A stretch of DNA of 64,000 bases from Planctomycetota bacterium (GTDB lineage: Bacteria > Planctomycetota > PLA2 > JAEUHO01): the NCBI GenBank assembly GCA_965223505.1, contig CBDCWP010000026.1, forward strand, positions 64,001 to 128,000, in the 5' to 3' direction. Below, one piece after another: positions 18,927 to 64,000 of this stretch (the stretch's first letter is position 1; the number at the start of each line of letters is the position of its first letter). Under the pieces are notes generated by a model that had not been told where the DNA came from, did not search any database, and worked only from the letters and a program-made list of their open reading frames with translations. The translations under genes were made by a program, and so were the position numbers.

Positions 18927-19032
18927 GGGCAGCCCTTGTGGCTGCCCAATCCCCTGTAGGGGCAGCCCTTGTGGCTGCCCAAGGAACGACCCCCACGTGC
19001 CCGACTTGGGCGACCACGAGGGTCGCCCGTAC
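18923..19032. repeat. REP cluster (GTAG-type; two direct units plus one inverted unit)
   Basis: GTAGGGGCAGCCCTTGTGGCTGCCC at 18923 and 18956; inverted variant 19008-19032. Confidence 0.85.
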
Positions 19033-19162
19033 AGGCGCCCATGCGCGTCGGCATGTCGGAATGCCACGCCGTTTCGGCATGTGGCACGCCGCGCCCCATG
19101 CGGCCCCGCACGCACCGCCCCGCCGAAGCCTGATTCTTCGGCCCCGCTCTTCCGCCTCGTGT

Positions 19163-22412: not shown

Positions 22413-22498
22413 GTAGGGGCGACCCTTGTGGTCGCCCAAACCTCGTAGGGGCGACCCTCGTGGTCGCCCAATTGGGCAGCCACAAGGGCTGCCCCTAC
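22413..22498. repeat. REP cluster (three units)
   Basis: GTAGGGGCGACCC(T/C)GTGGTCGCCC-type units at 22413 and 22445, inverted unit 22474-22498. Confidence 0.85.
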
Positions 22499-22499
22499 G

Positions 22500-23536
22500 T
22501 GTCATTGCTGAGCAGGTTGTAGACATCCCGGGAATCCCGGAACTTGGGGGTTGCGAAACCCAACCCAAGTCACCGGGAGGCTCCCAGGATGAACCTGCAC
22601 TCTAACGCTCGAACGACGCCGCGAACTCGACTGCTGCTTGTGCAGCGGGTTTTGGAGGAAGGATGGCGCGTTTCGGACGCTGCCGAGGCGATGGGAATCA
22701 GCCGAGGCACGGCCTACAAGTGGCTTGGGCGCTACGAGGCAGAGGGCGAAGGGGGTCTGTCGGATCGCAGTTCGGCGCCGAGTCGAGTGTGGAACCGAAC
22801 GCCGGCGCGATTGGTACGGCGAATCGAGCAGCTACGCCGCAGGAAGCTGATCGGCTGGGCGATCGCAACGCGGCTGCGGATGGCGCTTTCCACCGTGGGT
22901 GGCATCTTGCGGCGGCTGGGACTAGGGCGGCTGAGCGCACTGGAGCCCAAGGAGCCTGTGGTGCGCTATGAGCGCGAGCGTCCGGGCGAGCTGATCCACC
23001 TGGACGTGAAGAAACTGGGGCGCTTCAAGCATCCGGGCAGGCGTGTGGACCCGGATCCGCGTTGCCGCAACCGAGGCCTGGGCTGGGAGTACCTGCACGT
23101 TTGCGTGGACGATCACACGCGCCTGGCATACGCAGAGATCTTGCCCAACGAGCGCGCGGAGTCGGCGGTGGGTTTCCTACAGCGAGTTGCGCACTGGCTA
23201 CACGTTCACGGCGTGCGCGTGGAGCGCGTCATGACGGACAACGCCGCGTCGTACCGCGGCTTCGCCTTCCAGGCCGCGCTCAAGGAGCTGGGAGCTCGCC
23301 ACGTACGCACACGGCCGTATCGGCCCCAGACGAATGGCAAGGCCGAGCGGTTCATCCAAACGACGCTGCGCAAGTGGGCCCACGTGAAGCCCTACCGCAG
23401 CAGCCGCGCTCGAGCCAAGGCCCTCGGGCCTTGGCTCGAGCACTACAACCGACGCAAGCCTCACGCTAGCCTTGGAGGCAAGACCCCCTTCGAGCGGCTT
23501 CAGGCTGCGGTGTAAACAACGTGCTCAGCACTGAGA
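22500..23536 (+). mobile_element. IS481-family insertion sequence with 6-bp target duplication CCTACG
   Basis: Imperfect terminal IRs TGTCATTGCTGAGCAGGTTGT / ACAACGTGCTCAGCACTGAGA; CCTACG at 22494-22499 and 23537-23542. Confidence 0.9.
22589..23515 (+). CDS. IS481 family transposase
   Basis: MNLHSNART, IHLDVKKLG, VMTDN, PQTNGKAERF. Confidence 0.95.
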   Translation: MNLHSNARTTPRTRLLLVQRVLEEGWRVSDAAEAMGISRGTAYKWLGRYEAEGEGGLSDRSSAPSRVWNRTPARLVRRIEQLRRRKLIGWAIATRLRMALSTVGGILRRLGLGRLSALEPKEPVVRYERERPGELIHLDVKKLGRFKHPGRRVDPDPRCRNRGLGWEYLHVCVDDHTRLAYAEILPNERAESAVGFLQRVAHWLHVHGVRVERVMTDNAASYRGFAFQAALKELGARHVRTRPYRPQTNGKAERFIQTTLRKWAHVKPYRSSRARAKALGPWLEHYNRRKPHASLGGKTPFERLQAAV

Positions 23537-23564
23537 CCTACGGGGCTCAATTCGACGCGTCCCT

Positions 23565-23619
23565 GTTGGGGCGACCCTCGTGGTCGCCCAATTTGGGCAG
23601 CCACAAGGGCTGCCCCTAC
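23565..23619. repeat. REP inverted pair
   Basis: Same palindromic unit as the other clusters, ending in CCCCTAC. Confidence 0.8.
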
Positions 23620-30560: not shown

Positions 30561-30804
30561 GTGAGCACACGTCGCGCGAAGTAGGCGGCACCTGCTCGGC
30601 GCGTCCACACTGCGACGACCCCTTCGTCGTGCGTAACAACACCGAAACCCTAGCGATTTGCTGGCATTTTGTAAATGCGAAGAAGGGCCTAAGCAGGGCG
30701 CCGAGAGGCCCCGGAGTTGCGGCCCTGTGCCCACGGTGCCGCAAGTGCATGGTGCAGCCCGAAATACGCCGGCGGGTGCCGCTCGCTCGTAGCCGGGCCG
30801 GCTG

Positions 30805-30877
30805 CTAGGGCGACCCTCGGGGTCGCCCAACCAGGCGCGTGCATCCTCCGTCGGGCAGCCACGAGGGCTGCCCCTAC
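30805..30877. repeat. REP inverted pair
   Basis: CTAGGGCGACCCTCGGGGTCGCCC and inverted GGGCAGCCACGAGGGCTGCCCCTAC. Confidence 0.8.
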
Positions 30878-32205
30878 AGGGTCTCGGCGCCCCGTCCGGT
30901 CTTGCGCCCCAACCCAATGCCCTCGTACTCGAACCCGGCCTCGCGGGCCTTGTCGGCATCCAGCACGTTGCGGCCGTCGAAGACGACCTTCTGCTTCATG
31001 ACGCCGCTGAGGCGTTCGAAGTCGGCGGCGCGGAATTCGAGCCACTCGGTCGCCAGGATGAGCGCGTCGGCGTCCTTGGCGGCGGCATAGGGGTCGGTCG
31101 AGTACTCCATGCGCTCACCGAACGCCTTGCGGAAGTTGTCAAGTGCTTCCGGGTCGGTCCCGACGACGGTGGCGCCTCTGGAGGCGAGCATGTCGGCGAT
31201 GACGAGCGCCGGTGCTTCGCGGATGTCGTCGGTCTGGGGCTTGAAGGCCAGGCCCCAGAGGGCGAAGCGCTTGCCGGAGAGATCCTCGCCGAAGCGTTCG
31301 ATGACGCGGCGTGCGATGAGCTCCTTCTGGGTGTCGTTGACGGCTTCGACGGCGGTGACGATGGTCATGTCGACGCCGGCGGCCTTGGCGATGTGCATGA
31401 GGCCCTGGGTGTCCTTGGGGAAGCAGGAGCCGCCGTAGCCGACGCCGGCGTAGAGGAACGGCTTTCCGATGCGGCTGTCGGTGCCGATGCCCGAGGCGAT
31501 GTCCTTGACGTTGGCGCCGACGGTGTCGCAGAGCCGGGCGATCTCGTTCATGAAGGAGATGCGGGTGGCGAGCATGGCGTTGGCGGCGTACTTGGTGACC
31601 TCGGCGGAGACGTTGGACATGCGCAGGATGGGCTTGCCGGAGACGACGTAGGGCGCGTAGAGGGTGCGCATGGTCTCGAAGGCTTCGTCGGAGTCGGTGC
31701 CGATGACGACGCGGTCGGGCTTGAGGAAGTCGTCGACGGAGCGGCCTTCGGCGAGGAACTCGGGGTTGGAGACGACGTGGACGGTGTGGTCGGTGTAGGT
31801 GGCACAGATCTCCTTCATGCGGGCGGCGGTGCCGACGGGCACGGTGCTCTTCATGACCAGGACGAGGGGGCCGGTGGCGGGTTCGACGGACTGCCTCACG
31901 GCGGCGTCGACGTAGGAGAGGTCGGGGGCGCCGTCGGGGCCTTCGGGGGTGCCGACGGCGATGAAGACGACGTCGCAGCCGGGGATGGCGTCGGCGTGGG
32001 AGGTGGTGAAGGAGATGCGGCCTTCGCGTAGGACGCGGTCGAGGATGCGACCGAGGCCGGGCTCGTAGATGGGGACCTCGCCGCCTCGGAGGGCGTCGAT
32101 CTTGGCGGGGTCGGTGTCGACGCAGACGACGTCGTGGCCTGTGTCGGCGAAGCAGACGCCGGCGACGAGGCCGACGTACCCGGTGCCGATGACGGCGATC
32201 TTCAT
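30874..32205 (-). CDS. ugd: UDP-glucose 6-dehydrogenase
   Basis: GTGYVG, KSTVPVG, SNPEFL.EG, GYGGSCFPKD, AFKPQTDD.RE. Confidence 0.95.
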   Translation of the reverse strand: MKIAVIGTGYVGLVAGVCFADTGHDVVCVDTDPAKIDALRGGEVPIYEPGLGRILDRVLREGRISFTTSHADAIPGCDVVFIAVGTPEGPDGAPDLSYVDAAVRQSVEPATGPLVLVMKSTVPVGTAARMKEICATYTDHTVHVVSNPEFLAEGRSVDDFLKPDRVVIGTDSDEAFETMRTLYAPYVVSGKPILRMSNVSAEVTKYAANAMLATRISFMNEIARLCDTVGANVKDIASGIGTDSRIGKPFLYAGVGYGGSCFPKDTQGLMHIAKAAGVDMTIVTAVEAVNDTQKELIARRVIERFGEDLSGKRFALWGLAFKPQTDDIREAPALVIADMLASRGATVVGTDPEALDNFRKAFGERMEYSTDPYAAAKDADALILATEWLEFRAADFERLSGVMKQKVVFDGRNVLDADKAREAGFEYEGIGLGRKTGRGAETL

Positions 32206-32338: not shown

Positions 32339-32417
32339 GGGGGTGTAGCTCAGTTCGGTTTAGAGCGCCGGCCTGTCAAGCCGGAGGTCGCGGGTTCGAG
32401 TCCCGTCACTCCCGCCA
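32339..32417 (+). tRNA. tRNA-Asp(GTC), integration site
   Basis: GGGGGTG/CACTCCC acceptor, CCGGC-CTGTCAA-GCCGG anticodon arm, GGTTCGAGTCC, CCA. Confidence 0.96.
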
Positions 32418-32566
32418 TTCTCCCTGCGCGTCCCTGCCCTAACTCGCGCGACGTTGCACGCTTGGGGCCGCTCCCCTACCCGGGCGCCCGACCCCTTACA
32501 TCTCGCAGCAATGTGCGAGGACGTGCGAGGTCGTGGCAGAAGAACAGCAAAGAAGTGGTCATAGTC
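32366..32566 (+). repeat. attL-like junction: 52-bp tRNA core plus downstream arm
   Basis: Core 32366-32417 identical to 53344-53395 and 58120-58171; 40-bp arm motif at 32527-32566. Confidence 0.88.
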
Positions 32567-32652
32567 GCTTGGCGGCGCTTGCTTCGCGTGGCGCCGATGC
32601 CAGTGGCGCGAGGTTCGCGGGACTGCCCGCCTCTGTCGGTAGCGTGAATACG

Positions 32653-44371: not shown

Positions 44372-45706
44372 ATGCAAATGCGGATCAGTGTCCAGTATCT
44401 GCCGGCCGACAAGTTGCTCCCGGACCCGGCGAACCCGCGGGTGATCTCGGACTCCGAGATGGCGGCGCTCGTCCGCTCGATCGAAACGTGGGGCCTCGTT
44501 GACCCCATCATCGTGCGCAAGGCCGACAGAACGGTGATTGGCGGCCATCAGCGCCTGCAAGCAGCGCGACGGCTTGGCTACAACTCGGTCCCCGTTGTCG
44601 AGGTCGATCTCTCGGAGGATCAGGCGCGGGCTCTCAACGTGGCGTTGAATCGAATCGGCGGCGAGTGGGACGTGCCCAAGCTGGCCGAACTTCTTCGCGG
44701 TCTCCCCGAGGACCTCGCCACGCTGACCGGCTTCGACCAGGACGCCATCGGGCGTGTGATGCACGAAGCCGAGCAAGCGATCCGCGCCATCCAGGGCGAG
44801 CAGGATCTCGACGCCGTGCCCGAACCGCCCGACGAGGCGGTCACGCAACGGGGCGATCTGATCCTGCTGGGTGAGCACCGCCTCTTGTGTGGTGACGCCG
44901 GAAGTACCGAGGATCTGGACCGACTACTCGACGGAGCGCCGATCCACTTGGCGAATTGTGACCCTCCCTACAACGTCAAGGTCGAGCCCAGGTCGAACAA
45001 TGCCATCGCAGCCGGCCTGACGACGAAGAACGACACGCGCGCCAAGACGCACCATCAGCAACTCGACGTGGCGCGCCATCCGGGCAAGGCCAAGGCGACG
45101 CACGATCGGCTGCGCGCGAAGGACCGTCCGTTAGAGAACGACTTCGTTTCCGACGAGGAGTTCGACCAACTCCTCCATGCGTGGTTCGGCAACCTGTCGC
45201 GTGTGCTACTCCCCGGTCGTGCAGCATACATCTGGGCCGGCTACGCCAACGTCGTGAACTTTCCGCAGGCGCTCAAGGAGGCGGGGCTCTACTTCTCACA
45301 GTGGATCATCTGGGACAAACAGTGGCCGGTGCTGACGCGCAAGGACTTCATGGGCGCCCACGAGGTCTGCTACTACACCTGGAAGGAAGGCGCGGCACAT
45401 CAGTTCTTCGGCCCGCCTAACGTGCCCGACGTATGGGCGGTGAAGAAGGTCAACCCGCAGTCCATGGTTCACCTCACGGAGAAGCCCGTCGAGTTGGCGA
45501 TCCGCGCGATTGAGTACAGCAGCGTTCCCGGTGAGAACGTGCTGGATCTGTTCGGCGGATCCGGTTCGACGCTGATTGCCTGTGAGCAAACGCAGCGCAA
45601 CGGCTACCTGATGGAGCTGGATGGTCTGTATTGCGACATCATCGTCGCTCGGTACGAGCATCTCACCGGGAAGAAGGCGGAACGCGTCCGTTCCGAACCG
45701 TCGTGA
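44372..45706 (+). CDS. ParB-N domain + N6/N4 DNA methyltransferase
   Basis: NPR, IGGHQR ParB motifs; DPPY; H.TEKPVEL; VLDLFGGSGST. Confidence 0.92.
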   Translation: MQMRISVQYLPADKLLPDPANPRVISDSEMAALVRSIETWGLVDPIIVRKADRTVIGGHQRLQAARRLGYNSVPVVEVDLSEDQARALNVALNRIGGEWDVPKLAELLRGLPEDLATLTGFDQDAIGRVMHEAEQAIRAIQGEQDLDAVPEPPDEAVTQRGDLILLGEHRLLCGDAGSTEDLDRLLDGAPIHLANCDPPYNVKVEPRSNNAIAAGLTTKNDTRAKTHHQQLDVARHPGKAKATHDRLRAKDRPLENDFVSDEEFDQLLHAWFGNLSRVLLPGRAAYIWAGYANVVNFPQALKEAGLYFSQWIIWDKQWPVLTRKDFMGAHEVCYYTWKEGAAHQFFGPPNVPDVWAVKKVNPQSMVHLTEKPVELAIRAIEYSSVPGENVLDLFGGSGSTLIACEQTQRNGYLMELDGLYCDIIVARYEHLTGKKAERVRSEPS

Positions 45707-45874
45707 CCGAGGACCCGGCCAGCGCCCTGGACCCCGCCGACCTCGAAGAACAGGCCAAGGCCACGATCGAGTCGTTGTCTCCCTCGACGAATAGGTGACC
45801 TGCGAAGGGCAGGAAACCGGTGTTGATAAGGCTCTCTCCTTTGGCTGGCCTATGTGCCAGGGAAAGGAAGAGAG

Positions 45875-47236
45875 ATGAACGACGATACGAAGGCGCCCGA
45901 GAGGTTGGACGGCCCGCTTCCGAAGGGAGGCGGAGGCGACGAAGTCGCCGGAGCCGAGCGGAGGAAGCGGGCCGTGAGCGGCTACGTGCCCCGCGGCACA
46001 CGCAGCCGTCGTGCTCGAACGGTGCGAAGCGACGCATCGCGTAGCGCGGAGTTCACGGGCGAGCAGCGCCTGTTGGCGCTTGACTGTTGGTTTCGCAGCG
46101 AGCTTGCGGCCACGGAGTTCGCGCCGCTGATCGGCGTGAGCACGGCGTCGCTGTACGCGTGGCGTCGCAAGTTCGAGGAGGAGGGCCCCGCCGGTTTGCT
46201 CGGGCACAAGCGCGGCATGAAGGGCAGCGGGCTGCCCGAGCCGGCGCGCCGTGCGATCCTGATGATGAAGGACGCGCATCCGGACTGGGGCCAGGATCGG
46301 ATCCACGACATGCTGATCCGAACGGAGGGTATCTCGGTTTCAGGCGGCGCGGTTCAGCGCGTGCTGAAGGAAGCGGGCTACGAGGTGGAGGCGGTTGCGC
46401 CGGCGCGCAACCCGCCCAAGGTGAAGCGATTCGAGCGCAAGCGACCGAACGAGCTTTGGCAAACGGATCTATTCACGTTTCTCCTGAAGCGCGAGCGTCG
46501 GCGCGTGCACCTGGTTTGCTACCTGGACGACTTCTCGCGTTTCATCGTGGGCTTCGGGCTTCACGCATCGGCGTCGGGTGCGATGGTTCGGGAGACGTTC
46601 GAGCAGGCGATCGCGAACTTCGGCGCGCCCGAGGAGATTTTGACCGACAACGGCGCGCAGTATCAGACCTGGCGCGGGAAGAGCTCGTTTCGCAAGCTTT
46701 GCGAGAAGCGCGGCATCAAGCAGATCGTGGCCAGGCCGAGGCGGCCGCAGACGCTTGGCAAGATCGAGCGTTTCTGGGGCACGCTGTTTCGCGAGCTGAT
46801 CGACGGAGCGATCTTCCGCGGCATGGAGGACGCCAAGACGCGCATTGCCCACTTCATCGGCTTCTACAACTTCCAGCGCACCCACCAGGGCATTGGCGGC
46901 CTGGTTCCAGCGGACCGATTCTTCGAAGCCTCGCAGAGCGTGCGCAGCGCCCTGCAGGAGGCGGTTGCAACGAACGCCAAGGAGTTGGCGCTTCACGGTG
47001 AGCCGCGCAAGCCCTTGTACCTGGCGGGTCGAATCGGCGACGAGCCGGTGTCGCTTCACGCCGAGGGCGACAAGGTGCTGTTGACGGACAAGGACGGCGT
47101 TCGCGAAGAGGTCGACTTGCGGGCATCGGGCAAGCGCAAGGATGCGGCCAAGGAGGGGCCGGGCGAGAGCGTGCTCGACGACGTGCTCGAGGAGCTCAAG
47201 GCCCTTGACGAGGCGCCCACGAAGGAGCAGGAGTAA
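45875..47236 (+). CDS. DDE transposase (HTH + rve integrase core, IS481-like)
   Basis: WQTD, LTDNG, PQTLGKIERF. Confidence 0.9.
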   Translation: MNDDTKAPERLDGPLPKGGGGDEVAGAERRKRAVSGYVPRGTRSRRARTVRSDASRSAEFTGEQRLLALDCWFRSELAATEFAPLIGVSTASLYAWRRKFEEEGPAGLLGHKRGMKGSGLPEPARRAILMMKDAHPDWGQDRIHDMLIRTEGISVSGGAVQRVLKEAGYEVEAVAPARNPPKVKRFERKRPNELWQTDLFTFLLKRERRRVHLVCYLDDFSRFIVGFGLHASASGAMVRETFEQAIANFGAPEEILTDNGAQYQTWRGKSSFRKLCEKRGIKQIVARPRRPQTLGKIERFWGTLFRELIDGAIFRGMEDAKTRIAHFIGFYNFQRTHQGIGGLVPADRFFEASQSVRSALQEAVATNAKELALHGEPRKPLYLAGRIGDEPVSLHAEGDKVLLTDKDGVREEVDLRASGKRKDAAKEGPGESVLDDVLEELKALDEAPTKEQE

Positions 47237-47742
47237 TGCCTACGAAGAAGAAGAACGTGACGACGATCACGGCGAGCAAGACGTCGCGCAAGCACGTGGC
47301 AGTGATATTGGAAGCGCTCTCAGGCGAGATCGGCACGAGCGAGGCGGCTGAGCAGATGGGCGTGTCGCTCTCGCGCTACTACCAGCTCGAAGGCCGTGCT
47401 TTGAAGGGCATGCTGCGGGCGATGGAGCCGAAGAAGCGCGGCATCCAGAAGACGCCGCAGCGCGAGATATTGGCGCTGAAGGCCGAGAAACAGCACCTGG
47501 AGAAGGAGCTTCGGCGGCACCAGTCCCTGCTTCGTGCGGCCAATCGAAGCCTGGGGCTGGCGCGCGGCGGGCGCAAGCAGGCATCCTCGAAGAAGGGCCG
47601 CAGCGCCAAGCGCGGCCACCGCGGCAAGACGGTGCTGAAGACGCTGCGCACGGGCCTTGAAGAGAAAGGAAACGGCGATGGGACGGCGAAGCGAGATGCC
47701 GACGCTGGTGGCGCGCACGTCGGCGAGCGAGACGGCGCGTGA
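47236..47742 (+). CDS. HTH/coiled-coil accessory protein of the element
   Basis: EAAEQMGVSLSRYYQLE; identical protein at 63129-63635. Confidence 0.8.
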   Translation: MPTKKKNVTTITASKTSRKHVAVILEALSGEIGTSEAAEQMGVSLSRYYQLEGRALKGMLRAMEPKKRGIQKTPQREILALKAEKQHLEKELRRHQSLLRAANRSLGLARGGRKQASSKKGRSAKRGHRGKTVLKTLRTGLEEKGNGDGTAKRDADAGGAHVGERDGA

Positions 47743-48073
47743 GCGCGTGAAGGTGATTCTGCTCACGCTTGGCCGGCAGTGGAGCGTTGGCGATGCGTGC
47801 GAGCGTTTGGGCATCGGCCGAACGCGCTTCCAGGATCTTCGACGTAGGTTCTTGCAGGCCGGCGTTGAGGCGCTTGAAGGCGGCGCTTGTGGCCGGCCGC
47901 GCGCCGTGCTGCCTGACGACGATCATGAGCTTGAGCGCGAGGTGTCGAAGCTACGGCACCGAGTGCGCGTGGTGCGCACGCAGGTGGACATCTTCGATTG
48001 CGGGCTTGGCGAGGCGCCGCGGGTTCGGCACGCGCTGCATGTGGCGCACCAGGAAGGTTGGAGGCAGCGATGA
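47678..48073 (+). CDS. Second HTH accessory protein of the element
   Basis: DACERLGIGRTRFQDLR...GRP; AAAGGA RBS. Confidence 0.75.
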   Translation: MGRRSEMPTLVARTSASETARERVKVILLTLGRQWSVGDACERLGIGRTRFQDLRRRFLQAGVEALEGGACGRPRAVLPDDDHELEREVSKLRHRVRVVRTQVDIFDCGLGEAPRVRHALHVAHQEGWRQR

Positions 48074-49176
48074 GCGAGAAGATGTCGTACGAGGAGCAGG
48101 TGAAGTTCCGGCTTCAGGCCGTGGAGGTGATGCGGCGAAGTGGCTGGGACAAGGAAACACGCGCCTACCTGGCGCGAGTCCTTGGCGTGGCCGAGCGAAC
48201 GATCAGGCGTTGGGAGCTTCGCGTTCGCCAGGGCAAGCCGGTGTACGAGAAGCGTGGCCGCAAGGCCGATGACGTACCACGAGCGAAGCGGCAGAAGGTG
48301 CTGCATGCGATGTTCAAGCTGGGGCCGTTCTCGGGTGTGGCCGTACTTCGGGGCATGTTCAGCGACGTACCGTATCGCGTGCTTTCAGAGATGAAGAGGC
48401 GCCTGCTACGGGTGGCGCTGCGTCGATGGCGCTGGTATCGCAAGCGGCTAGAGTGGGTTCGTTCCGGGGCGGTGTGGGCGGCGGACTTCACCAGGCCCAA
48501 GGCTGGCCTCTGGCAGGGCAAGGATCGACTGTTCCTGGTTCGCGATCTCGGAAGCGGAGCGCAGCTGGCGGCCGTAGCCTGCCGGGGCGAGAAGACGAAG
48601 ACTGTGTGCGCGGCGCTGCTCGCTTTGATCACGCTGTTCGGAGCGCCGCTGATTCTGAAGAAGGACAACGCGGGCGCGTTTCGCTCGGAACAGACGGCCG
48701 CGTTGCTCGAGGAGCACGGCATCACGCCACTCACGTCGCCGCCGTACACGCCCGCCTACAACGGCGCGTGCGAGCGCAGCGGCGGGAACTTCAAGCGACG
48801 TGTACAGCACATCGCGCAGATGGAAGGACATCCCCGCATCTGGCTACCTCAAAACCTCGACGACGCCTTGCTCGTTGCGAATACGACGGCGAGGCCATGG
48901 GGTGCGACTGGGCCGACGCCGGCGGAGGCTCTTGAAGACCGCCGGCCGATCACGAGGCAAGAGAGAACGGCATTTGAGCACGATCTGAAGTTCGAGACCG
49001 ATGCCGCGCTCAAGACATTCAAGGAAAGAAACGCTAGAATGCCGACGTGCATCGAGCGCGCGTCAATCGACCGCAGCGCGACGCAGAGAACGCTCTGCAA
49101 GCACGGCTATCTACAGTTCCGGAGAGGGCGCTTATCAACACTAGTTTCCGCTTGGCGGACGCGGCCTAACGCGTAG
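48070..49176 (+). CDS. Second DDE transposase (HTH + rve core), reads into the right end
   Basis: WAADF, KDNAGAF, PAYNGACER. Confidence 0.88.
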   Translation: MSEKMSYEEQVKFRLQAVEVMRRSGWDKETRAYLARVLGVAERTIRRWELRVRQGKPVYEKRGRKADDVPRAKRQKVLHAMFKLGPFSGVAVLRGMFSDVPYRVLSEMKRRLLRVALRRWRWYRKRLEWVRSGAVWAADFTRPKAGLWQGKDRLFLVRDLGSGAQLAAVACRGEKTKTVCAALLALITLFGAPLILKKDNAGAFRSEQTAALLEEHGITPLTSPPYTPAYNGACERSGGNFKRRVQHIAQMEGHPRIWLPQNLDDALLVANTTARPWGATGPTPAEALEDRRPITRQERTAFEHDLKFETDAALKTFKERNARMPTCIERASIDRSATQRTLCKHGYLQFRRGRLSTLVSAWRTRPNA

Positions 49177-49184
49177 GGGACACA

Positions 49185-50388
49185 GTACACGGACGTCGGT
49201 GGGACTACGCAGGTCTCAGATTCAAACGGGAATCTGACGGACAACGGAACGTATCTGTTCGAATACGACTACAGGAACCAGATCGTTCGCGTGAAACTGA
49301 AGTCAGATAGCTCGACTGTGGCGGAGTACCTCTACGACGCGCTGGGGCGGCGGGTCGAGAAGGAGGTAGGCGGCGACGTCTGGCGGTTCATCTACTCGGA
49401 CCTAGAGACAGTCGCCGTCTACGATGGGAGCAATAGCTGGCTGCAAGACTTCGTGTTCGGTCAACGAATCGATGAGGTCTTGATGCTCGAGCAGGCGGAC
49501 GTGCTCGACTTCGATGGGGATTCGAATACGACCGAGACGACGCGATCCTTCTACCATCTAAATGCCCTGGGGTCGGTGACTGAGATCACCGAGATGGACG
49601 AGGACGTTGCCGCCAGCTACCGCTACGACCCCTACGGCGCCGTGACGATTATTCGGAACAGCACCGAAGAGTCCGAGGACCCACTTGGGCAACCCTGGAT
49701 GTTCACAGGCAGGTTTGCCGATGAAGAGACGGGGATGTACTACTACCGCTCAAGGGCGTACGATCCGGAAGTTGGGAGATTCACTCAGCGAGACGGACTC
49801 AGCTACGCATCGGGTCCCAATCTATACGAGTACGTCGGGAGCCATCCTCCTTCCGGAAGAGATCCTCTCGGGCTTGAGGAAGAAGACACCGACGAGAAGA
49901 GCGCCGAAGACAAGCCGGACCAAGGTCCGGACACAGAGAAACTCATGAAGCCCAGGTGGCGGCCACCCGGCCGCGCAGGCTGGACCGCCGCATTTACGAA
50001 GGCACACCTCGAGTGGTGGGAGGTTATTATCCGCGAGTACGAGCTGCACGGGCATCCGGCGGAGCGCCGCCGTCCCGCTCCCGCGAAGCCCGAGAAAACC
50101 GCGTTCGACAAGGACGGCACGTCCCCACCGCCCTGGATGGTGATCCCCCATGTACCTGCAGGTGGGGGGGGGACGACCGTCTGCCCTGGGTCTGGGCCGA
50201 AGTCTCTGCGTGATTGGCTGGGTGATAAGGATCTGCCTCCGTGGCTGGTCGCGCCCCATCTTCTTGACGAACCGCTCGACGGCGAGAGTAACGCTGACGG
50301 CTCGGACGACGCGGGAAGTGACGGCGCGGGCAAGGGTGAGACAGAAGGCGACAAGAAGACCGGCGAGAGCGGGAAGCCCGCCAAGTAG
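49185..50388 (+). pseudogene. 5'-truncated Rhs-core protein with unknown C-terminal tip
   Basis: DSNGNL, YDALGRR, YDPYG, FTGR..D.ETG.YYY..R.YDP..GRF, P....DPLGL; frame open right up to the element end. Confidence 0.88.
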
Positions 50389-53121: not shown

Positions 53122-53260
53122 GTGAATCCTCCGTGCCACTTCCGCCAGAACACGGCGAAGGGCAGCCGCGCTCATCCCCGGTCTCGACGGCCCGCCACAG
53201 GATACCGTAGGTTGTCGCTCCCACGCCGACGGCGATCGTGCAGAGTCGTGCACGGACGTG

Positions 53261-53543
53261 CGCACAGTCATGCCGATTTGTGGCAAAGACACCCGAGGCT
53301 GAATCTGCAACTTACGCCGTTGCAAACAGTTACGACTTGGGCTCGCCGGCCTGTCAAGCCGGAGGTCGCGGGTTCGAGTCCCGTCACTCCCGCCATTCTT
53401 GTTGCGCCCAGTTGCACTATCTCGCGCCCCGGTGCGCACTTCGGGCGATCTCGCGCCACGGCCGCCGATTCCTTACATCTCGCAACGATGTGCGAGGAAG
53501 TGCGAGGTCGTGGCAGAAGAACAGCAAAGAAGTGGTCATAGTC
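53261..53543 (+). repeat. attP-like junction: upstream arm + 52-bp tRNA-Asp core + downstream arm
   Basis: Core 53344-53395; arms 53261-53290 and 53504-53543 shared with the 58037-58320 junction. Confidence 0.88.
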
Positions 53544-53574
53544 ACTTTGCGGCGCGGGTTCTTCGTGGACCCAC

Positions 53575-54509
53575 TCACACCTTCCAGAGGAGCTGACTTC
53601 CCTCTCGGCGCACGCGGCCTCGCTGTACCAGCACATCCAGCCCCAGGCTCATGCGGGCCTTCAGTTGCTTGCCCATTCGGTTGAACCCTAGGACACGGCC
53701 GGCCTCGCGAGACAAGTCGTCCGCGTCCATGCTGACTTGGTCGCGCAGCACCGCTGCAGCGGCGTTGGCAACCTCTTCGGGGGGGATTTCGTTCGCGTTG
53801 CGGCGGTCCCGATCTTCACGGCCCTGGACTCTCACGACGTCGTACGTGCGGGGGTCCTGGTGCGAGGCCCATAGGAACGTCGACGGTCCGGCCTTCGTCT
53901 CGATCAATGCGAGAGGTCGCAGTGCCTGCGCCATGCGACCAAGGACACGGTCTGTTGCTTTCTGGAGCCCGAATGCCTCCACAACCCGGCGGCAGAGCAA
54001 GCGGTACTCGATCGGTGCCTCTTGGTCGAGCACGCGCTGGGCGAGTTCCTGTATTGCTGCGGTTCGGGAGCTTGAATAGAAGGCATCCGGTCCGCCACGG
54101 GCCTTGAGCACCGGGGTTGCTCGGTACGTCCGGCCCGCCGGCGCGAACACCTGTTTCGCTGGCGCGGGTGAAGGTGAAGCTACGGCCGCCATGTGTGCAC
54201 TGGACGCGAAGAGGCCGGAGCTAGTCGCCATGACGTCATCAGCTCCGCCGCCTTCGGCATTGGTTGAGGTGGGACGTCCGAGTTCCTCAAAACGTTGAAC
54301 GACACGCTCAATCTCGCGATCCGGATCCAGCCACCAGTCCGTCGACCAGATGCGGTGCAATGACCAACCGAGACTTTCCAACACGGCTTGTCGTAGGCGG
54401 TCTCGGTCACGAGCCGTCTTGCCGCTGTGGTACATGGCTCCGTCGCACTCAATCCCCAATCGGAACCGGCCCGGCACGTCGGGGTCCTTGATGCCAAGAT
54501 CGACACGGT
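53575..54509 (-). pseudogene. 3' fragment of a large helicase/Vsr-like nuclease/DUF3320-type protein
   Basis: VDLGI.DP..PGRF.LGIECDGAMYHS..TARDRDRLRQAVLE.LGW..HRIWSTDW; 5' part replaced by transposon DNA. Confidence 0.82.
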
Positions 54510-55298
54510 GAGGCGCCTGCTACGGGTGGCGCTGCGTCGATGGCGCTGGTATCGGAGGCGGCTAAAGTGGGTTCGTGCCGGGGCGGTGTGGGCGGCGGAC
54601 TTCACCAGGCCCAAGGCTGGCCTGTGGCAGGGCAAGGATCGACTGTTCCTGGTTCGCGATCTCGGAAGCGGAGCGCAGCTGGCGGCCGTAGCCTGCCGGG
54701 GCGAGAAGACGAAGACTGTGTGCTCGGTGCTGCTCGCTTTGATCACGCTGTTCGGAGCGCCGCTCGTTCTGAAGAAGGACAACGCCGGCGCGTTTCGCTC
54801 GGAGCAAACGAAGGCGTTGCTCGAGGAGCACGGCATCACGCCACTCACGTCGCCGCCGTACACGCCCGCCTACAACGGCGCGTGCGAACGAAGCGGCGGC
54901 AACTTCAAGCGACGTGTGGAGCACATCGCGCAGATGGAAGAACATCCCCGCATCTGGCTCCCTCAAAACCTCGACGACGCCTTGCTCGTTGCGAATACGA
55001 CGGCGAGGCCATGGGGTGCGACCGGGCCCACGCCGGCGGAGGCCCTCGAAGACCGCCGGCCCATCACGAGGCAAGAGAGAACAGCATTCGAGCACGATCT
55101 GAAGTTCGAGACCGATGCCGCGCTCAAGACATTCAAGGAAAGAAACGCTAGAATGCCGATGTGCATCGAGCGCGCGTCAATCGACCGCAGCGCGACGCAG
55201 AGAACGCTCTGCAAGCACGGCTATCTACAGTTCCGGAGAGGGCGCTTATCAACACTAGTTTCCGCTTGGCGGACGCGGCCTAACGCGTAGGGGACACA
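54510..55298 (+). mobile_element. Truncated copy of the dual-DDE element (3' part of ORF4 + right end)
   Basis: Near-identical to about 48396-49184; ends GGGACACA. Confidence 0.92.
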
Positions 55299-55299
55299 G

Positions 55300-55801
55300 A
55301 AGCACCATGCCGAGAAAGAATGGACCTGGACTATGGTCTGTGATCCACAGGACAGCCTTTACTACGTGACGTCGCACTACACAACGTCAGCGCAAAGCTA
55401 CATGTTCACAGAGGTTGACGATATCCTGGACTGTGATTACGCCAACGCGATTAACTACATTCGGATCAAGAACAGAGGTTGACGATATCCTGGACTGTGA
55501 TTACGCCAACGCGATTAACTACATTCGGATCAAGAACGACAATCTGGGCGAAGCATACCGCACCTACAAGGACGAGATTGAATCTGAGAACACCAATTCC
55601 AGTTCAGAAAATGTCAGAAGCAAGCAAAGCGGCACCGGAACAACGGCCGCAGTCGGGGATGGGTCGTTGTTCAGCGCGAGCACGAAGATAGAGTGTCACA
55701 CGTACGCAAAGAGCGAAGCACACGCACACGGCAACTTGGTCGAGTACACCTGTGGCCCGAATTTCCTTCCGATTCCAGCACCTCCGGATGACGACGACTA
55801 G
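55300..55801 (+). pseudogene. 5'-truncated ORF frameshifted by a 64-bp tandem duplication
   Basis: Removing one repeat unit gives a single open frame from the element end to the stop at 55801. Confidence 0.65.
55408..55535 (+). repeat. Perfect 64-bp tandem duplication
   Basis: ACAGAGGTTGACGATATCC...CGGATCAAGA at 55408-55471 and 55472-55535. Confidence 0.95.
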
Positions 55802-57873: not shown

Positions 57874-58036
57874 ACCTCTTTCATTTTACTCCAGTGGAGC
57901 AACTTCGCCACTGTATCGAGCGTGTCGACCCCATCGCGCGCGGGCAAGGTGGCCCGGTCGGTCGAGACGGACCTCGCGCGCCAACGATCGTCGGAGCCAT
58001 CGCCGCTCGCTCAACGCGAGGTCGTGCAACGACGCG

Positions 58037-58320
58037 CGCACAGTCATGCAGATTTGTGGCAAAGACGCTCGCGGCCGGTCTTGCAACTGACGCCGTTGCA
58101 AGCAGTTACGACTTGGCCTCGCCGGCCTGTCAAGCCGGAGGTCGCGGGTTCGAGTCCCGTCACTCCCGCCAGTCTTCTTGCACGACGTCGCCCCAACTTG
58201 CGCGACGTTGCACGCTTGCGGCGATCTCCCTAGCGGAGCGCCCGATCCCTTACTTCTCGCAGCAATGTGCAAGGACGTGCGAGGTCGTGGCAGAAGAACA
58301 GCAAAGAAGTGGTCATAGTC
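58037..58320 (+). repeat. Second attP-like junction
   Basis: Core 58120-58171; arms 58037-58066 and 58281-58320. Confidence 0.88.
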
Positions 58321-58432
58321 ACTTGGCGCTTCTCAGTCAGCCGGCCGAGTGTGGCGTTCCGACCGATCGGCAGGGACGGAGTGGTGACCCGGGTCCCAAC
58401 TTCCGGTTACCGAGCGGGGTGAAGCTACTCGC

Positions 58433-59957
58433 GTGAGGCGTTGTCTTCCCCATCTGCTCTTGCTCGGCGCCATCACACTGGTAACAGCCTTCACGGCCTC
58501 GACGGTCGGAGAAACGTCTGCAGCACCTGAGGCCGACGCTGGCGGGCCGTGCGGCCTACCCGACAGCGGTGCCGTCTGCGAACGGCCGCTTCTCGGCGCG
58601 AAGCCATCAGACGGAATCGATGAAAGTCCTTGGACGCAATCGCCGCCAGTCGAGCTTCCGACGAAGGCCCGCGGGCTCGGCGCGAGACCGTTTGGCGGCA
58701 TGGATTTCGATCCTTGGACGCAATCATCGCCCACCGATCCTCGGACGCAGTTGCCACCGGCCGTTCCGCGGAAGCGATCGCCGCCCGCCGTTGTTCCGTC
58801 GCGAGCCGGACGGCGCGACAAGAGCAAAGAGAAGTGGCGAGTTCAACGCGCACTACCGGGTACGAACGGCGAACTGATCGTCGCTGAGGAGTATCTCGAA
58901 GAAGCGAGCGCGACCAAAGCGGCCCTCGTCGCCTATGACCTGTCCTCGCTTGCACCTAGTTTCCGTGGGCATAGCGCCTCCGCGCCGCTCAAAGGCCACG
59001 AGCCACTTGCTGCATGGCCCCCCCGCGACCATGACTGGTGGACCCGGCTCGCTACGGCCATCGTGGACAGGGTCGGCGAATCCGGCTGGGCGAAAGACAG
59101 TACGCTCCTCGCCTGGGACAAGGAACGGGCGCTGCTCTTCGCGGCTAGGGGACATCGACCTCGAGGTGTCGTGGTGCACGCACGCACCTCGCTTCGGGAC
59201 GTTCTCGACGAGTCTCGTTGGATCCCACGTCAACGTCACGATCGAGATCCCAGACACAGACCCGTTGAGCTGGCGAGGCCGCCTGCCCGCAGTGCCGGGC
59301 ACCAGCTCGGTGATCCCCCTGGGCGAGGGCCTCTCGTGTGAAATCGAAGTAGGCGAGCCGAAGCGCGCCGACCGACCCCTGAAGCGCACCTGGCGCCGCG
59401 CCTCACCGTCGTTAGGTCCCCCACCCCCAGCGGGCGAGGGCTCGGTACTCGTGTTCGATCTCTCAGGCTCCGAGAGCGGGAAACTCGGCGAGGGGCAAGT
59501 CACCCTGCGTGGCCCACATCAGGTCGTCCAAAGTGATGTCCGACGCTGTTCTCCTGCGTGGCTTGCGGCGGCGTACGACCGAGACCCTCTCCGACCGCCA
59601 GGAGTCGGCACCGGACCCGTTGCCTGTGGGCAGATTCGCGTGCAGGCATCGTCGTTCGACGCCACCCGCGAGCCCTCTCGTATCGATCTTGTGCTCGTGG
59701 TCAGCGAGTGGACCGGGGACACACGGCTAGTTCAACTGCGACCTGGCGGCACGCCGGAGTTTGACCGCAGCCGCTTAGTGGAACTTCCGTCGGATCATGC
59801 CGTGGTCACGAGCCGCCACGTTTTCATTTCGCCGGAAGGCGAAGGCTCCGTCTCCTTTGCCGGCGACATCGGCCGCGGTCCCGAGCTCTTCACCCTTGCC
59901 TTACAGCGACGTCAGGTGCCGCAAGATACGGATGCAGGCTCGCGTCGCGGGCAGTGA
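58433..59957 (+). pseudogene. Secreted hypothetical protein, probably frameshifted near 59150
   Basis: Signal peptide in 58433 frame; protein-like sequence continues in the 58935 frame after about 59150. Confidence 0.5.
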
Positions 59958-59972
59958 CCAGTCAGGAAGCAC

Positions 59973-60012
59973 GAGGTCGTGGCAGAAGAACAGCAAAGAA
60001 GTGGTCATAGTC
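59973..60012 (+). repeat. Orphan copy of the 40-bp downstream arm motif (no tRNA core)
   Basis: GAGGTCGTGGCAGAAGAACAGCAAAGAAGTGGTCATAGTC exact match. Confidence 0.92.
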
Positions 60013-60106
60013 ACTTGGCGGCGCGGGTCTCGGGTGCGCTCACGAGCGTCAAGCGCTACTCTCGTCGGTAGCTCCCCCTCGATGGGCGTGTCCTCAGGGC
60101 CTGGCC

Positions 60107-60823: not shown

Positions 60824-61686
60824 GTGAGCACAGCTAGAGCACATCTTCAGCAGGCTACAGTCGTGTTCGCACTCGTGGCCGCTTGCGGCCTGCGAACACC
60901 CACGACAGTTCATGGGGAACCAACTCCGGCGGACTCCACACTTGATGTTCACATAGTCGGCGCGACAGATGCCGGCGACAAGTGGATGCGAGTTGTGGTT
61001 CGCGAGTTGATTCCGTCCTCAACGAGACGACATCACTCGATTGGACAACTGCTTTGGGTTGCTAGAGTCAAGTCTAAGGGTGGTAGAGCGCGGACTTCTC
61101 TTCCTCATAGCGCAGTTCGCGAGTTTCTGGCGGTCTCTGCGTCAACTTCGCAGTCCTGCGAGTACTGGAACGCCGCGGGCCCGCTGCAAGTGGACAAACC
61201 GAATGTGGTAAGGATCCCTGTAGAACTGACGCTGGCACGAACCGCCACTGGTAAAGTCCGTCACTCCAATGAGTGCCGCTGCGAGAAGTCAGTCGTCTGG
61301 TTTCGCAGAGCCAAAGCTCCCTGGGCACCACGCGGTTCAGCGGCCTCCGCGATGCGCCTTTTCCCACTTGATTTGGGCGGTGAGCCCAAAGCAGTAGTCT
61401 CCAGGCTGTGGGTATCCCGGTCTGTGCAGGTGCAGCCGTCTGGCCGATATGTACTTAGAGGGATCGAAGCCGGCGCTGACTACGATCTTGACGTGGTCTC
61501 CTCTACCTGTGGAGAGTCTCAGACCGTTACCTGGAAGGCCGAAGATGGAGAAAGGGCGCCCGAGCTTGTGGTTCAAGAGCCGGGCGACCTTGTCGTACGC
61601 ATCGATTGGCGCGTCGAGCAATCGAAGTCCCGCTATTCGCTCGATTTGGGACCCGCTCCCTTCAGACGCCGACGGTTCAGCGCGAC
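60824..61686 (+). pseudogene. Exported beta-rich protein, 3'-truncated by the dual-DDE element
   Basis: Frame runs into the element end at 61687 and stops inside it. Confidence 0.6.
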
Positions 61687-61694
61687 TGTGTCCC

Positions 61695-62801
61695 CTACGC
61701 GTTAGGCCGCCTCCGCCAAGCGGAAACTAGTGTTGATAAACGCCCTCTCCGGAACTGTAGATAGCCGTGCTTGCAGAGCGTTCTCTGCGTCGCGCTGCGG
61801 TCGATTGACGCGCGCTCGATGCACGTCGGCATTCTAGCGTTTCTTTCCTTGAATGTCTTGAGCGCGGCATCGGTCTCGATCTTCAGATCGTGCGCGAATG
61901 CCGTTCTCTCTTGCCTCGTGATGGGCCGGCGGTCTTCGAGGGCCTCCGCCGGCGTGGGCCCGGTCGCACCCCATGGCCTCGCCGTCGTATTCGCAACGAG
62001 CAAGGCGTCGTCGAGGTTTTGAGGTAGCCAGATGCGGGGATGTCCTTCCATCTGCGCGATGTGCTGTACACGTCGCTTGAAGTTCCCGCCGCTGCGCTCG
62101 CACGCGCCGTTGTAGGCGGGCGTGTACGGCGGCGACGTGAGTGGCGTGATGCCGTGCTCCTCGAGCAACGCGGCCGTCTGTTCCGAGCGAAATGCGCCGG
62201 CGTTGTCCTTCTTCAGAATGAGCGGCGCTCCGAACAGCGTGATCAATGCGAGCAGCGCCGCGCACACAGTCTTCGTCTTCTCGCCCCGGCAGGCTACGGC
62301 CGCCAGCTGCGCTCCGCTTCCGAGATCGCGAACCAGGAACAGTCGATCCTTGCCCTGCCACAGGCCAGCCTTGGGCCTGGTGAAGTCCGCCGCCCACACC
62401 GCCCCGGCACGAACCCACTTTAGCCGCCTCCGATACCAGCGCCATCGACGCAGCGCCACCCGTAGCAGGCGCCTCTTCATCTCTGAGAGCACTCGATACG
62501 GCACGTCGCTGAACATTCCCCGAAGTACGGTCACACCCGAGAACGGCCCGAGCTCGAACATCGCACGCAGCACCTTCTGCCGCTTCGCTCGTGGTACGTC
62601 ATCGGCCTTGCGGCCACGCTTCTCGTACACCGGCTTGCCCTGGCGAACGCGAAGCTCCCACCGCCTGATCGTTCGCTCGGCCACGCCAAGGACTCGCGCC
62701 AGGTAGGCGCGTGTTTCCTTGTCCCAGCCACTTCGCCGCATCACCTCCACGGCCTGAAGCCGGAACTTCACCTGCTCCTCGTACGACATCCTCTCGCTCA
62801 T
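61695..62801 (-). CDS. Second DDE transposase (ORF4 copy)
   Basis: Near-identical to 48070-49176. Confidence 0.88.
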   Translation of the reverse strand: MSERMSYEEQVKFRLQAVEVMRRSGWDKETRAYLARVLGVAERTIRRWELRVRQGKPVYEKRGRKADDVPRAKRQKVLRAMFELGPFSGVTVLRGMFSDVPYRVLSEMKRRLLRVALRRWRWYRRRLKWVRAGAVWAADFTRPKAGLWQGKDRLFLVRDLGSGAQLAAVACRGEKTKTVCAALLALITLFGAPLILKKDNAGAFRSEQTAALLEEHGITPLTSPPYTPAYNGACERSGGNFKRRVQHIAQMEGHPRIWLPQNLDDALLVANTTARPWGATGPTPAEALEDRRPITRQERTAFAHDLKIETDAALKTFKERNARMPTCIERASIDRSATQRTLCKHGYLQFRRGRLSTLVSAWRRRPNA

Positions 62802-63193
62802 CCCTGCCTCCATCCTCCCTGGTGCGCCACATGCAGCGCGTGCCGAACCCGCGGCGCCTCGCCAAGCCCGCAATCGAAGATGTCCACCTGCGTTCGCACC
62901 ACGCGCACTCGGTGCCGTAGCTTCGACACCTCGCGCTCAAGCTCATGATCGTCGTCAGGCAGCACGGCGCGCGGCCGGCCACAAGCGCCGCCTTCAAGCG
63001 CCTCAACGCCGGCCTGCAAGAACCTACGTCGAAGATCCTGGAAGCGCGTTCGGCCGATGCCCAAACGCTCGCACGCATCGCCAACGCTCCACTGCCGGCC
63101 AAGCGTGAGCAGAATCACCTTCACGCGCTCACGCGCCGTCTCGCTCGCCGACGTGCGCGCCACCAGCGTCGGCATCTCGCTTCGCCGTCCCAT
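62798..63193 (-). CDS. HTH accessory protein (ORF3 copy)
   Basis: Near-identical to 47678-48073. Confidence 0.75.
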   Translation of the reverse strand: MGRRSEMPTLVARTSASETARERVKVILLTLGRQWSVGDACERLGIGRTRFQDLRRRFLQAGVEALEGGACGRPRAVLPDDDHELEREVSKLRHRVRVVRTQVDIFDCGLGEAPRVRHALHVAHQGGWRQG

Positions 63194-63635
63194 CGCCGTT
63201 TCCTTTCTCTTCAAGGCCCGTGCGCAGCGTCTTCAGCACCGTCTTGCCGCGGTGGCCGCGCTTGGCGCTGCGGCCCTTCTTCGAGGATGCCTGCTTGCGC
63301 CCGCCGCGCGCCAGCCCCAGGCTTCGATTGGCCGCACGAAGCAGGGACTGGTGCCGCCGAAGCTCCTTCTCCAGGTGCTGTTTCTCGGCCTTCAGCGCCA
63401 ATATCTCGCGCTGCGGCGTCTTCTGGATGCCGCGCTTCTTCGGCTCCATCGCCCGCAGCATGCCCTTCAAAGCACGGCCTTCGAGCTGGTAGTAGCGCGA
63501 GAGCGACACGCCCATCTGCTCAGCCGCCTCGCTCGTGCCGATCTCGCCTGAGAGCGCTTCCAATATCACTGCCACGTGCTTGCGCGACGTCTTGCTCGCC
63601 GTGATCGTCGTCACGTTCTTCTTCTTCGTAGGCAT
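63129..63635 (-). CDS. HTH accessory protein (ORF2 copy)
   Basis: Identical translation to 47236-47742. Confidence 0.8.
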   Translation of the reverse strand: MPTKKKNVTTITASKTSRKHVAVILEALSGEIGTSEAAEQMGVSLSRYYQLEGRALKGMLRAMEPKKRGIQKTPQREILALKAEKQHLEKELRRHQSLLRAANRSLGLARGGRKQASSKKGRSAKRGHRGKTVLKTLRTGLEEKGNGDGTAKRDADAGGAHVGERDGA

Positions 63636-64000
63636 TACTCCTGCTCCTTCGTGGGCGCCTCGTCAAGGGCCTTGAGCTCCTCGAGCACGTCGTCGAGCAC
63701 GCTCTCGCCCGGCCCCTCCTTGGCCGCATCCTTGCGCTTGCCCGATGCCCGCAAGTCGACCTCTTCGCGAACGCCGTCCTTGTCCGTCAACAGCACCTTG
63801 TCGCCCTCGGCGTGAAGCGACACCGGCTCGTCGCCGATTCGACCCGCCAGGTACAAGGGCTTGCGCGGCTCACCGTGAAGCGCCAACTCCTTGGCGTTCG
63901 TTGCAACCGCCTCCTGCAGGGCGCTGCGCACGCTCTGCGAGGCTTCGAAGAATCGGTCCGCTGGAACCAGGCCGCCAATGCCCTGGTGGGTGCGCTGGAA
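63635..64000 (-). CDS. DDE transposase ORF1 copy (C-terminal part; 5' beyond window)
   Basis: Matches the C-terminus of 45875-47236. Confidence 0.85.
   Translation of the reverse strand, partial: FQRTHQGIGGLVPADRFFEASQSVRSALQEAVATNAKELALHGEPRKPLYLAGRIGDEPVSLHAEGDKVLLTDKDGVREEVDLRASGKRKDAAKEGPGESVLDDVLEELKALDEAPTKEQE

Follow-up and report, generated by a model that had tools for sequence, protein, structure and literature searches.

We analyzed a 64,000-nt stretch of DNA (hereafter the window) from the Planctomycetota bacterium assembly GCA_965223505.1 (contig CBDCWP010000026.1, positions 64,001–128,000), which carries at positions 45776–49184 a 3409-bp transposable element (copy A) with genes for two DDE enzymes and two helix-turn-helix (HTH) proteins. 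The element begins with TGTCTCCC and ends with GGGGACACA, giving it TGT...ACA termini. Alignment of one end with the reverse complement of the other yielded inverted repeats (IRs) of ~65 bp, which are bipartite and comprise a terminal part (TGTcTCCC vs TGTgTCCC) and a subterminal part. The latter is the block GGAAAC.GGTGTTGATAAG..CTCTCC, located ~37 nt in from the element end, whose 19-nt arm, GGAAACCGGTGTTGATAAG, shows 89% complementarity between the element ends. The left inverted repeat (IRL) spans 45776–45841 on the plus strand, its terminal TGTCTCCC... being followed by the subterminal GGAAACCGGTGTTGATAAGGCTCTCTCC at 45812–45839. The right inverted repeat (IRR), delineated by the end alignment and by motif scans, spans 49119–49184 and reads TGTGTCCCC...GGAAACTAGTGTTGATAAGCGCCCTCTCC on the minus strand.

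Four overlapping open reading frames (ORFs) on the plus strand fill the element in the order DDE-1, ORF2, ORF3 and DDE-2, with ORF2 and ORF3 encoding the HTH proteins. At the DDE-1/ORF2 junction the stop overlaps the start (TAATG), ORF2 and ORF3 overlap by 65–86 nt, and ORF3 and DDE-2 meet in an ATGA stop/start overlap. With genes overlapping in this way, neither a fifth gene nor internal ends could be accommodated. The stop codon of DDE-2 lies 8 bp short of the element end, its last codons and the stop falling inside the IRR. None of the four proteins showed an ATPase domain when scanned with Pfam and NCBIfam. An initial annotation of this DNA, made from the letters alone, had described a 3409-bp unit with TGT...ACA ends and ~65-bp imperfect IRs, four overlapping ORFs (DDE-1, HTH, HTH, DDE-2), the motif sets WQTD/TDNG/KIER in DDE-1 and AADF/KDNA/ACER in DDE-2, a DDE-2 stop 8 bp from the end and no ATPase. 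All of this agrees with the coordinates and end alignment, the ORF map, the window sequence and the domain scans reported here, and both motif sets are present.

The four encoded proteins form two related modules

DDE-1 (460 aa; 45854–47236, plus strand) consists of an N-terminal HTH, an rve/rve_3 core and a conserved C-terminal region, with Pfam matches to rve (E 3.4e-21), HTH_32 (E 8.5e-11) and also rve_3. Against the NCBIfam IS481 model (NF033577) it reached 207.2 bits, below the cut-off of 224, with the alignment covering positions 2–284 of the 284 in the model. The triad residues D205, D265 and E305 were invariant in 39/39 aligned sequences. DDE-2 (368 aa from ATG; 48070–49176, plus strand, open from 47998) comprises an N-terminal helical/HTH region, an RNase-H-like core and a helical C-terminal region. 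Its Pfam rve match was obtained at E 3.9e-11, and its NCBIfam scores amounted to 65.1 bits for IS481 (cut-off 224) and 68.9 bits for IS3 (cut-off 160). The triad D139, D199 and E235 was invariant in all 38 aligned sequences, whose columns average 35% identity, and likewise in 26/26 database homologues. Both enzymes keep an intact DDE triad family-wide, in line with the earlier description of two distinct, intact-looking DDE enzymes.

In the AlphaFold2 model of DDE-2 (pLDDT 88), helical HTH-like domains at the N-terminus precede an RNase-H-like core, and the C-terminal part is helical. The best fold matches of this model in the Protein Data Bank (PDB) were retroviral integrases and intasomes, with the PFV intasome (3l2q) at E 1.3e-10 and the RSV integrase (4fw1) at a target-normalised TM of 0.65. 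Sequence searches of the PDB with DDE-1 and DDE-2 returned only retroviral integrase cores, no bacterial transposase structure ranking higher. The Pfam rve matches of both enzymes, the two triads and the predicted DDE-2 fold place them within the rve superfamily, defined by an RNase-H-like core with a D,D,E triad.

For ORF2 (168 aa; 47236–47742, plus strand), we observed an HTH, then a stretch predicted to form a coiled coil and finally a basic tail. Its Pfam matches were weak, with HTH_28 at 19.5 bits, below the cut-off of 25, and HTH_Tnp_1 also sub-threshold, and the residues L25, G30, Y48, Y49 and E52 were invariant in the alignment of 36 sequences. In the Atlas, the clusters to which relatives of ORF2 belong are annotated as 'hypothetical protein' or as HTH_28/HTH_Tnp_1, and one cluster bears the label of a leucine zipper of an insertion element. 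ORF3 (131 aa from ATG; 47678–48073, plus strand, open from 47657) matched HTH_28 with 35.4 bits and HTH_23 with 31.1 bits. The 36- and 33-sequence alignments of ORF2 and ORF3 revealed a common plan of HTH, LEP.P.GR motif, heptad-like helix and basic tail.

Profile–profile comparison with hhalign related DDE-1 to DDE-2 with a probability of 97.3% (E 2e-11) over 261 columns including the HTH, at ~22% identity, and ORF2 to ORF3 with a probability of 99.4% (E 9e-22). Because DDE-1 is homologous to DDE-2 and ORF2 to ORF3 by these comparisons, the element can be described as two paralogous modules, the first comprising DDE-1 and then ORF2, the second ORF3 and then DDE-2. The resulting arrangement of enzyme, HTH, HTH, enzyme looks like the outcome of an ancient duplication of a module made up of an HTH protein and a DDE enzyme.

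The four genes constitute a single unit conserved in distant relatives

Two enzymes of only ~22% identity, each with its own HTH partner gene, might also be found side by side if two independent insertion sequences (ISs), for example an IS481-type beside an IS3-like element, were nested or had become fused by chance. Internal ends, named beforehand as the sign of such an arrangement, were searched for and not found. Scanning the window for the subterminal 12-mer with at most 2 mismatches yielded 7 matches vs 1.38 expected by chance, a number reached in 0 of 100 shuffles. The best 4 of these 7 matches are exactly the four element ends present in the window (the further copies are described below), the other 3 are 2-mismatch sites outside the element, and none lies inside it. 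Similarly, the terminal motif was present in the window at the four element ends only, with no internal occurrence, and no inverted-repeat pair bracketing either half of the element was found.

The element family is real and abundant. A word-indexed protein search returned 89 DDE-2 homologues, many of them on contigs of 3.3–3.9 kb, the size of one unit (3.3–4.2 kb for homologues overall), and a profile built from 38 DDE-2 sequences matched 1100 representative clusters (50% identity) at E≤1e-30. A one-genome-per-species scan for DDE-2 relatives gave 121 confirmed places, 80 of which were kept as loci and compared by tblastn with the four window proteins. Sixty loci were evaluable, with at least 2.6 kb of upstream sequence and at least 70% of DDE-2 covered by the match, whereas 11 had too little upstream sequence and 9 a partial DDE-2. 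The co-conservation of homologous four-gene units, which the initial annotation had put up for checking, was found: DDE-1, ORF2 and ORF3 lay upstream of DDE-2 on the same strand in 50/60 evaluable loci, the order in the tblastn locus listing being DDE-1, ORF2, ORF3, DDE-2, and the conserved set reached down to ~30% DDE-2 identity. The remaining evaluable loci carried DDE-1 and ORF2 (four), DDE-1 and ORF3 (one), ORF3 only (one, L024) or none of the three (four, L032, L039, L048 and L055). When 72,556 plasmid records were searched with DDE-2 by tblastn, none matched at E≤1e-10.

By record title the relatives are mostly from Planctomycetota, with others from Acidobacteriota, Myxococcota (Sandaracinaceae), Gemmatimonadota, NC10, Thermodesulfobacteriota, Verrucomicrobiota and Proteobacteria. 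The four-gene set was also present on long contigs titled Sandaracinaceae, Terriglobia and Planctomycetota, and the non-planctomycete loci on long contigs comprise L029 (286 kb), L047 (187 kb) and L062 (48 kb). L032 and L039 come from one Pirellulaceae metagenome-assembled genome (MAG). At L032 the DDE-2 homologue (5531–6766) is neighboured by amidohydrolase and ceramidase-like genes, and at L039 (4980–6446) by a HipA-like kinase and its HTH partner.

The gene junctions are conserved as well. A 4-nt overlap between the DDE-1 stop and the ORF2 start was found in 50/66 loci, and one between ORF3 and DDE-2 in 22/58, the latter two genes being naturally fused into one ORF in 2 loci (L044, 3104–4888, 594 aa; L049, 2580–4508, 642 aa). 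Over 37 elements, the pairwise distances of DDE-1 and DDE-2 correlated with a Pearson r of 0.70, a value that 0 of 2000 Mantel permutations reached. With a mean pairwise distance of 0.62 vs 0.40, DDE-2 evolves faster than DDE-1. Even very distant relatives inherit the four genes as a set.

For two independent ISs, neither the absence of internal ends nor the overlap of adjacent genes would be expected, and the same holds for an identical gene order in 50/60 evaluable loci from several phyla, for the co-varying distances of the two enzymes and for a conservation of ends that is confined to the outer ones. We consider this explanation extremely unlikely. Positions 45776–49184 are a single unit, as the initial annotation had it, and this conclusion is much more certain than the hetero-oligomeric reading discussed below.

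Both ends of the family share one bipartite plan

In the relatives, 27 candidate end pairs scored at least 65, two of which (L019 and L071) were dropped with the best TGT pair located inside a repeat. The 25 elements retained exhibit one plan at both ends, TGT(G/C)CCCC..CGAAAT..TTGCC, then AA..GGT.GAGGAAT..CCTCCTCC ~40 nt in, so that the ends of homologous units are conserved in the same bipartite form as in the window. Element lengths in the family range from 3.4 to 4.2 kb. Two contigs (L045, 3830 bp; L054, 3811 bp) represent exactly one element each, from TGTG to CACA, as expected when an assembly breaks at the boundaries of repeats. According to our reading of the end and ORF listings, the DDE-2 stop lies exactly 8 bp from the end in 15/25 elements, and the IRR therefore also encodes the DDE-2 C-terminus.

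The two ends differ consistently at two places: position 4 is a G in 23/25 IRR and a C in about half of the IRL, and CCGAAAT in the IRL corresponds to ACGTAAT in the IRR. Together with the fact that each enzyme gene adjoins one end, these differences could point to one enzyme per end, as the initial annotation had tentatively suggested, with DDE-1 then acting at the IRL and DDE-2 at the IRR. That suggestion was not supported, as the IRL and IRR carry the same terminal and subterminal motifs in the window and in the 25 elements. Furthermore, the left/right differences fall where the IRR also codes for the DDE-2 C-terminus and stop, and coding constraint can explain them. We regard one enzyme per end as very unlikely, and the presence of the same two motifs at both ends argues that the same set of proteins would bind both.

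Evidence for a candidate hetero-oligomeric transposase

With moderate confidence, we interpret the element as an autonomous four-gene IS of the IS481/IS3 branch of the rve DDE superfamily whose transposase is probably hetero-oligomeric; a heteromeric transposase had also been inferred in the initial annotation. In the mechanism that we propose, the four proteins would be made together from one transcript with translational coupling, and their HTH parts would bind the pair of sequence blocks found at either end. The two ends would then be paired by a hetero-oligomeric transpososome with both DDE enzymes in it, and each enzyme would be responsible for a different catalytic step. For example, one enzyme might carry out 3'-end cleavage and strand transfer and the second might cut the other strand, which would match the TnsB/TnsA division of labour of Tn7, except that both enzymes would be DDE proteins and an ATPase would be absent. 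For a partner with no catalytic function, a triad that stays invariant over so much divergence would be difficult to account for. A complex prediction for DDE-1 with DDE-2, run with alignments, gave a score of 0.00, which is below the mark but was obtained without controls and speaks neither for nor against binding.

One enzyme, most likely DDE-1, could instead be the sole transposase, with DDE-2 and the HTH proteins as regulators that could be inhibitors, end-binding competitors or assembly factors akin to OrfA in IS3-family elements. DDE-1 comes close to the IS481 model (207 bits against the cut-off of 224), some of its homologues are named 'IS481 family transposase' by NCBI, and it is more conserved than DDE-2. 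The HTH and coiled-coil plan of ORF2 and ORF3, some of whose Atlas neighbours are labelled as HTH or leucine-zipper proteins of insertion elements, would also suit such a role. A pure regulator, however, needs no catalytic triad, yet D139, D199 and E235 are invariant in 38/38 sequences in spite of the low column identity. In addition, the fold predicted for DDE-2 is a complete integrase-like core, and the changes in DDE-2 between the window copies are mostly synonymous. On balance, we consider the regulator explanation unlikely.

The work might also be divided by time, such that excision or copying out of the element, perhaps in circular form, would fall to one enzyme and integration to the other. 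Conservation of both triads is compatible with this, as are the identical motifs at both ends, which a junction of abutted ends needs. DDE-1 and DDE-2 are moreover homologous to the IS3/IS481 group, members of which use circular intermediates. In the known copy-out-paste-in ISs, in contrast, one enzyme does both steps, and we judge a temporal division to be quite improbable.

Several points weigh against an autonomous IS with a hetero-oligomeric transposase. Contact between DDE-1 and DDE-2 and a need for both enzymes are postulated, and DDE-1 alone might suffice for transposition, because canonical IS481 and IS3 elements work with a single DDE protein. The faster evolution of DDE-2 would suit an accessory function no less than a catalytic one. 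DDE-1 was missing upstream in 5/60 evaluable loci, and L032 and L039 have host genes upstream of DDE-2; the DDE-2 copies at these two loci may be remnants or solo/domesticated copies. The relatives are nearly all from MAGs, where binning or assembly errors may affect taxonomy and flanks and where short binned contigs are possibly misassigned. Finally, the target duplications that the initial annotation had proposed to look for were not found, with an abutting direct repeat of at least 3 bp in 0/18 elements with both flanks (17 loci and copy A of the window). At offsets of up to 4 nt, repeats between the flanks of the 18 elements were not longer than in the background of mismatched flank pairs. 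Such an absence is not predicted by a simple DDE insertion model; for IS481 relatives, PMC10045372 gives duplications of 2–15 bp, mostly 6 bp.

The flanks of copy A are not contiguous, as the end of a ParB-N/N6_N4 methylase gene adjoins it on the left and a 5'-truncated RHS gene on the right. The left gene (44372–45706) encodes a ParB N-terminal domain fused to an N6/N4 DNA methylase domain. The RHS ORF on the right is open up to the element end and matches Rhs_assc_core with 69 bits. At L043 the flanks are likewise discontiguous, with a GH77 gene ending at the left end of the element at profile position 329 of 465 and no resumption on the right. When flank ORFs were tested and Pfam-scanned, no consistent frame relation joining left and right flanks into one continued ORF was found. 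Duplications could be hidden by rearrangement between copies or by replicative intramolecular events; a bolder alternative is that the joining geometry could lack a stagger. As a separate observation, the 9 bases outside each end at L005 form an inverted rather than a direct repeat (TATCGACGG / TGGTCGATA).

A more far-reaching version of the proposal can be put forward only tentatively. The transposase would then be an obligate hetero-oligomeric DDE enzyme derived from duplication of an HTH and DDE module, with the chemistry split between its two enzymes as an ATPase-free counterpart of TnsA/TnsB and with a joining geometry that leaves no duplication, in a family that is abundant in many phyla and overlooked by generic annotation. 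We regard this full combination as possible but doubtful.

Further copies and neighbourhood in the window

Besides the full-length copy A (45776–49184), the window contains two incomplete copies. Copy B (61685–64000, minus strand) runs off the window end and matches 46871–49186 over 2316 nt at 99% identity; within the window its DDE-2, ORF3 and ORF2 are intact and DDE-1 is partial. Copy C (54510–55299, plus strand) is a 790-nt, 5'-truncated remnant comprising the last ~260 codons of DDE-2 and the IRR, with 97% identity to copy B and 96% to copy A. The three copies end alike on the right with ...GGGGACACAG and diverge beyond it, which substantiates the exact common right end reported earlier. 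Upstream of copy C, before 54510, the sequence is unrelated and holds an ORF on the opposite strand with REase_MTES_1575 and DUF3320 domains. This ORF (53575–54477, minus strand) adjoins the truncation, and its domain combination is typical of the C-termini of large helicase-nucleases. A perfect 64-bp tandem duplication (55408–55535) is located ~110 bp beyond the right end of copy C.

Comparison of copies A and B yielded 19 synonymous and 10 non-synonymous changes in DDE-2. The differences are distributed as a mosaic, with 0 over 46871–47976 and 33 between 47977 and 49160, and many of the copy B variants in DDE-2 are common to the remnant C. Such a pattern suggests that two variants of the element have recombined, or undergone gene conversion, within one genome.

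The truncated RHS gene that abuts copy A extends over 49186–50388. Elsewhere in the window, a segment of 126–209 nt recurs four times at 63–89% identity (32366–32591, 53245–53568, 58021–58345 and 59912–60037), and these recurring segments resemble an array of RHS C-terminal/orphan cassettes with IS copies in between. As the copies of the element lie among RHS toxin cassettes and have discontiguous flanks, the element probably drives rearrangement in this window. We further observed GC-rich palindromic repeats of ~32 nt (GTAGGGGCGACCCTCGTGGTCGCCC and its complement) in clusters at 18908–19040, 22413–22507, 23562–23619 and 30796–30892, which resemble REP-like intergenic repeats.

Comparison with known systems

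Textbook insertion sequences encode one DDE transposase, while in bacterial transposons that use several proteins the additional component is an ATPase or a nuclease not of the DDE type. Full-text literature searches brought up no account of an IS encoding two DDE transposases, and the gene set is undescribed to that extent. If the two DDE enzymes are always co-inherited, this large and ancient family would be a natural case of a transposase turned heteromeric by duplication. It would allow asking how strand cleavage and strand transfer divide between active sites, and would show how asymmetry arises in transpososomes. In current annotation the genes of one unit appear as separate, unrelated 'transposase' and 'hypothetical' entries, and IS counts and boundaries are therefore wrong in Planctomycetota and other phyla.

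Tn7 offers an analogy in the way of working only. It also has two different catalytic proteins encoded side by side, TGT...ACA ends and multi-block ends, but TnsA is a restriction-enzyme-like nuclease, whereas the second enzyme here is an rve-type DDE protein. Tn7 furthermore needs the AAA+ protein TnsC and target selectors, neither of which is present in the element, and it makes 5-bp duplications. IS21, Mu, Tn552 and Tn5053 share with the element a multi-gene module, an rve-type DDE enzyme and CA-3' ends. Their helper is an ATPase, in contrast to the second DDE enzyme and two HTH proteins found here, and among the four element proteins the Pfam and NCBIfam scans detected no AAA+/P-loop partner of the TnsC, IstB, MuB or TniB type. 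With the IS21 model, for which the cut-off is 160 bits, the scores were only 43 and 31 bits.

Retroviral integrases provide the best fold matches of the DDE-2 model and the best PDB sequence matches of both enzymes. The intasome, with inner (catalytic) and outer (structural) subunits, might serve by analogy as a model for two specialised paralogues. It is, however, built from one protein, whose N- and C-terminal domains differ from those of the element enzymes and whose identity to them is ~20%.

The likeness to IS3 lies in a gene for a small HTH and coiled-coil protein that precedes a DDE (rve) gene and overlaps it. Relative to DDE-2, ORF3 is in the -1 frame, the overlap window measuring 76 nt, the two are fused in L044 and L049, and the element ends finish in CA. 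Inspection by eye showed no slippery heptamer of the A6G type in the ORF3/DDE-2 overlap of the window, where the junction is the ATGA stop/start. The element differs in having two HTH and DDE modules where IS3 has one, and both DDE-1 (146.9 bits) and DDE-2 (68.9 bits) miss the cut-off of 160 bits of NF033516.

With IS481 the element shares TGT...ACA termini with inverted repeats and a transposase with an N-terminal HTH and an rve/rve_3 core, DDE-1 aligning end to end with the model, and some of the more distant DDE-1 homologues carry the NCBI name IS481 family transposase. IS481 members are ~1–1.3 kb long with one transposase gene, whereas the element has four genes and two DDE enzymes in 3409 bp, with relatives of 3.4–4.2 kb. 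The curated cut-off of 224 bits is missed by DDE-1 (207.2) as well as by DDE-2 (65.1). For IS481, PMC10045372 states duplications of 2–15 bp, mostly 6 bp, vs 0/18 here, where rearranged flanks could hide some. The initial annotation had been unable to place the element in a named family, and by the tests run here none fits, with DDE-1 at 207 bits below the IS481 cut-off of 224 and DDE-2 at 65–69 bits. The element misses defining features of both IS481 and IS3, as it stays below the curated score cut-offs, has more than a single enzyme, and differs in size and in the duplication. By its DDE-1, termini and homologue names it is closest to IS481, and by the HTH gene upstream of a DDE gene close also to IS3.

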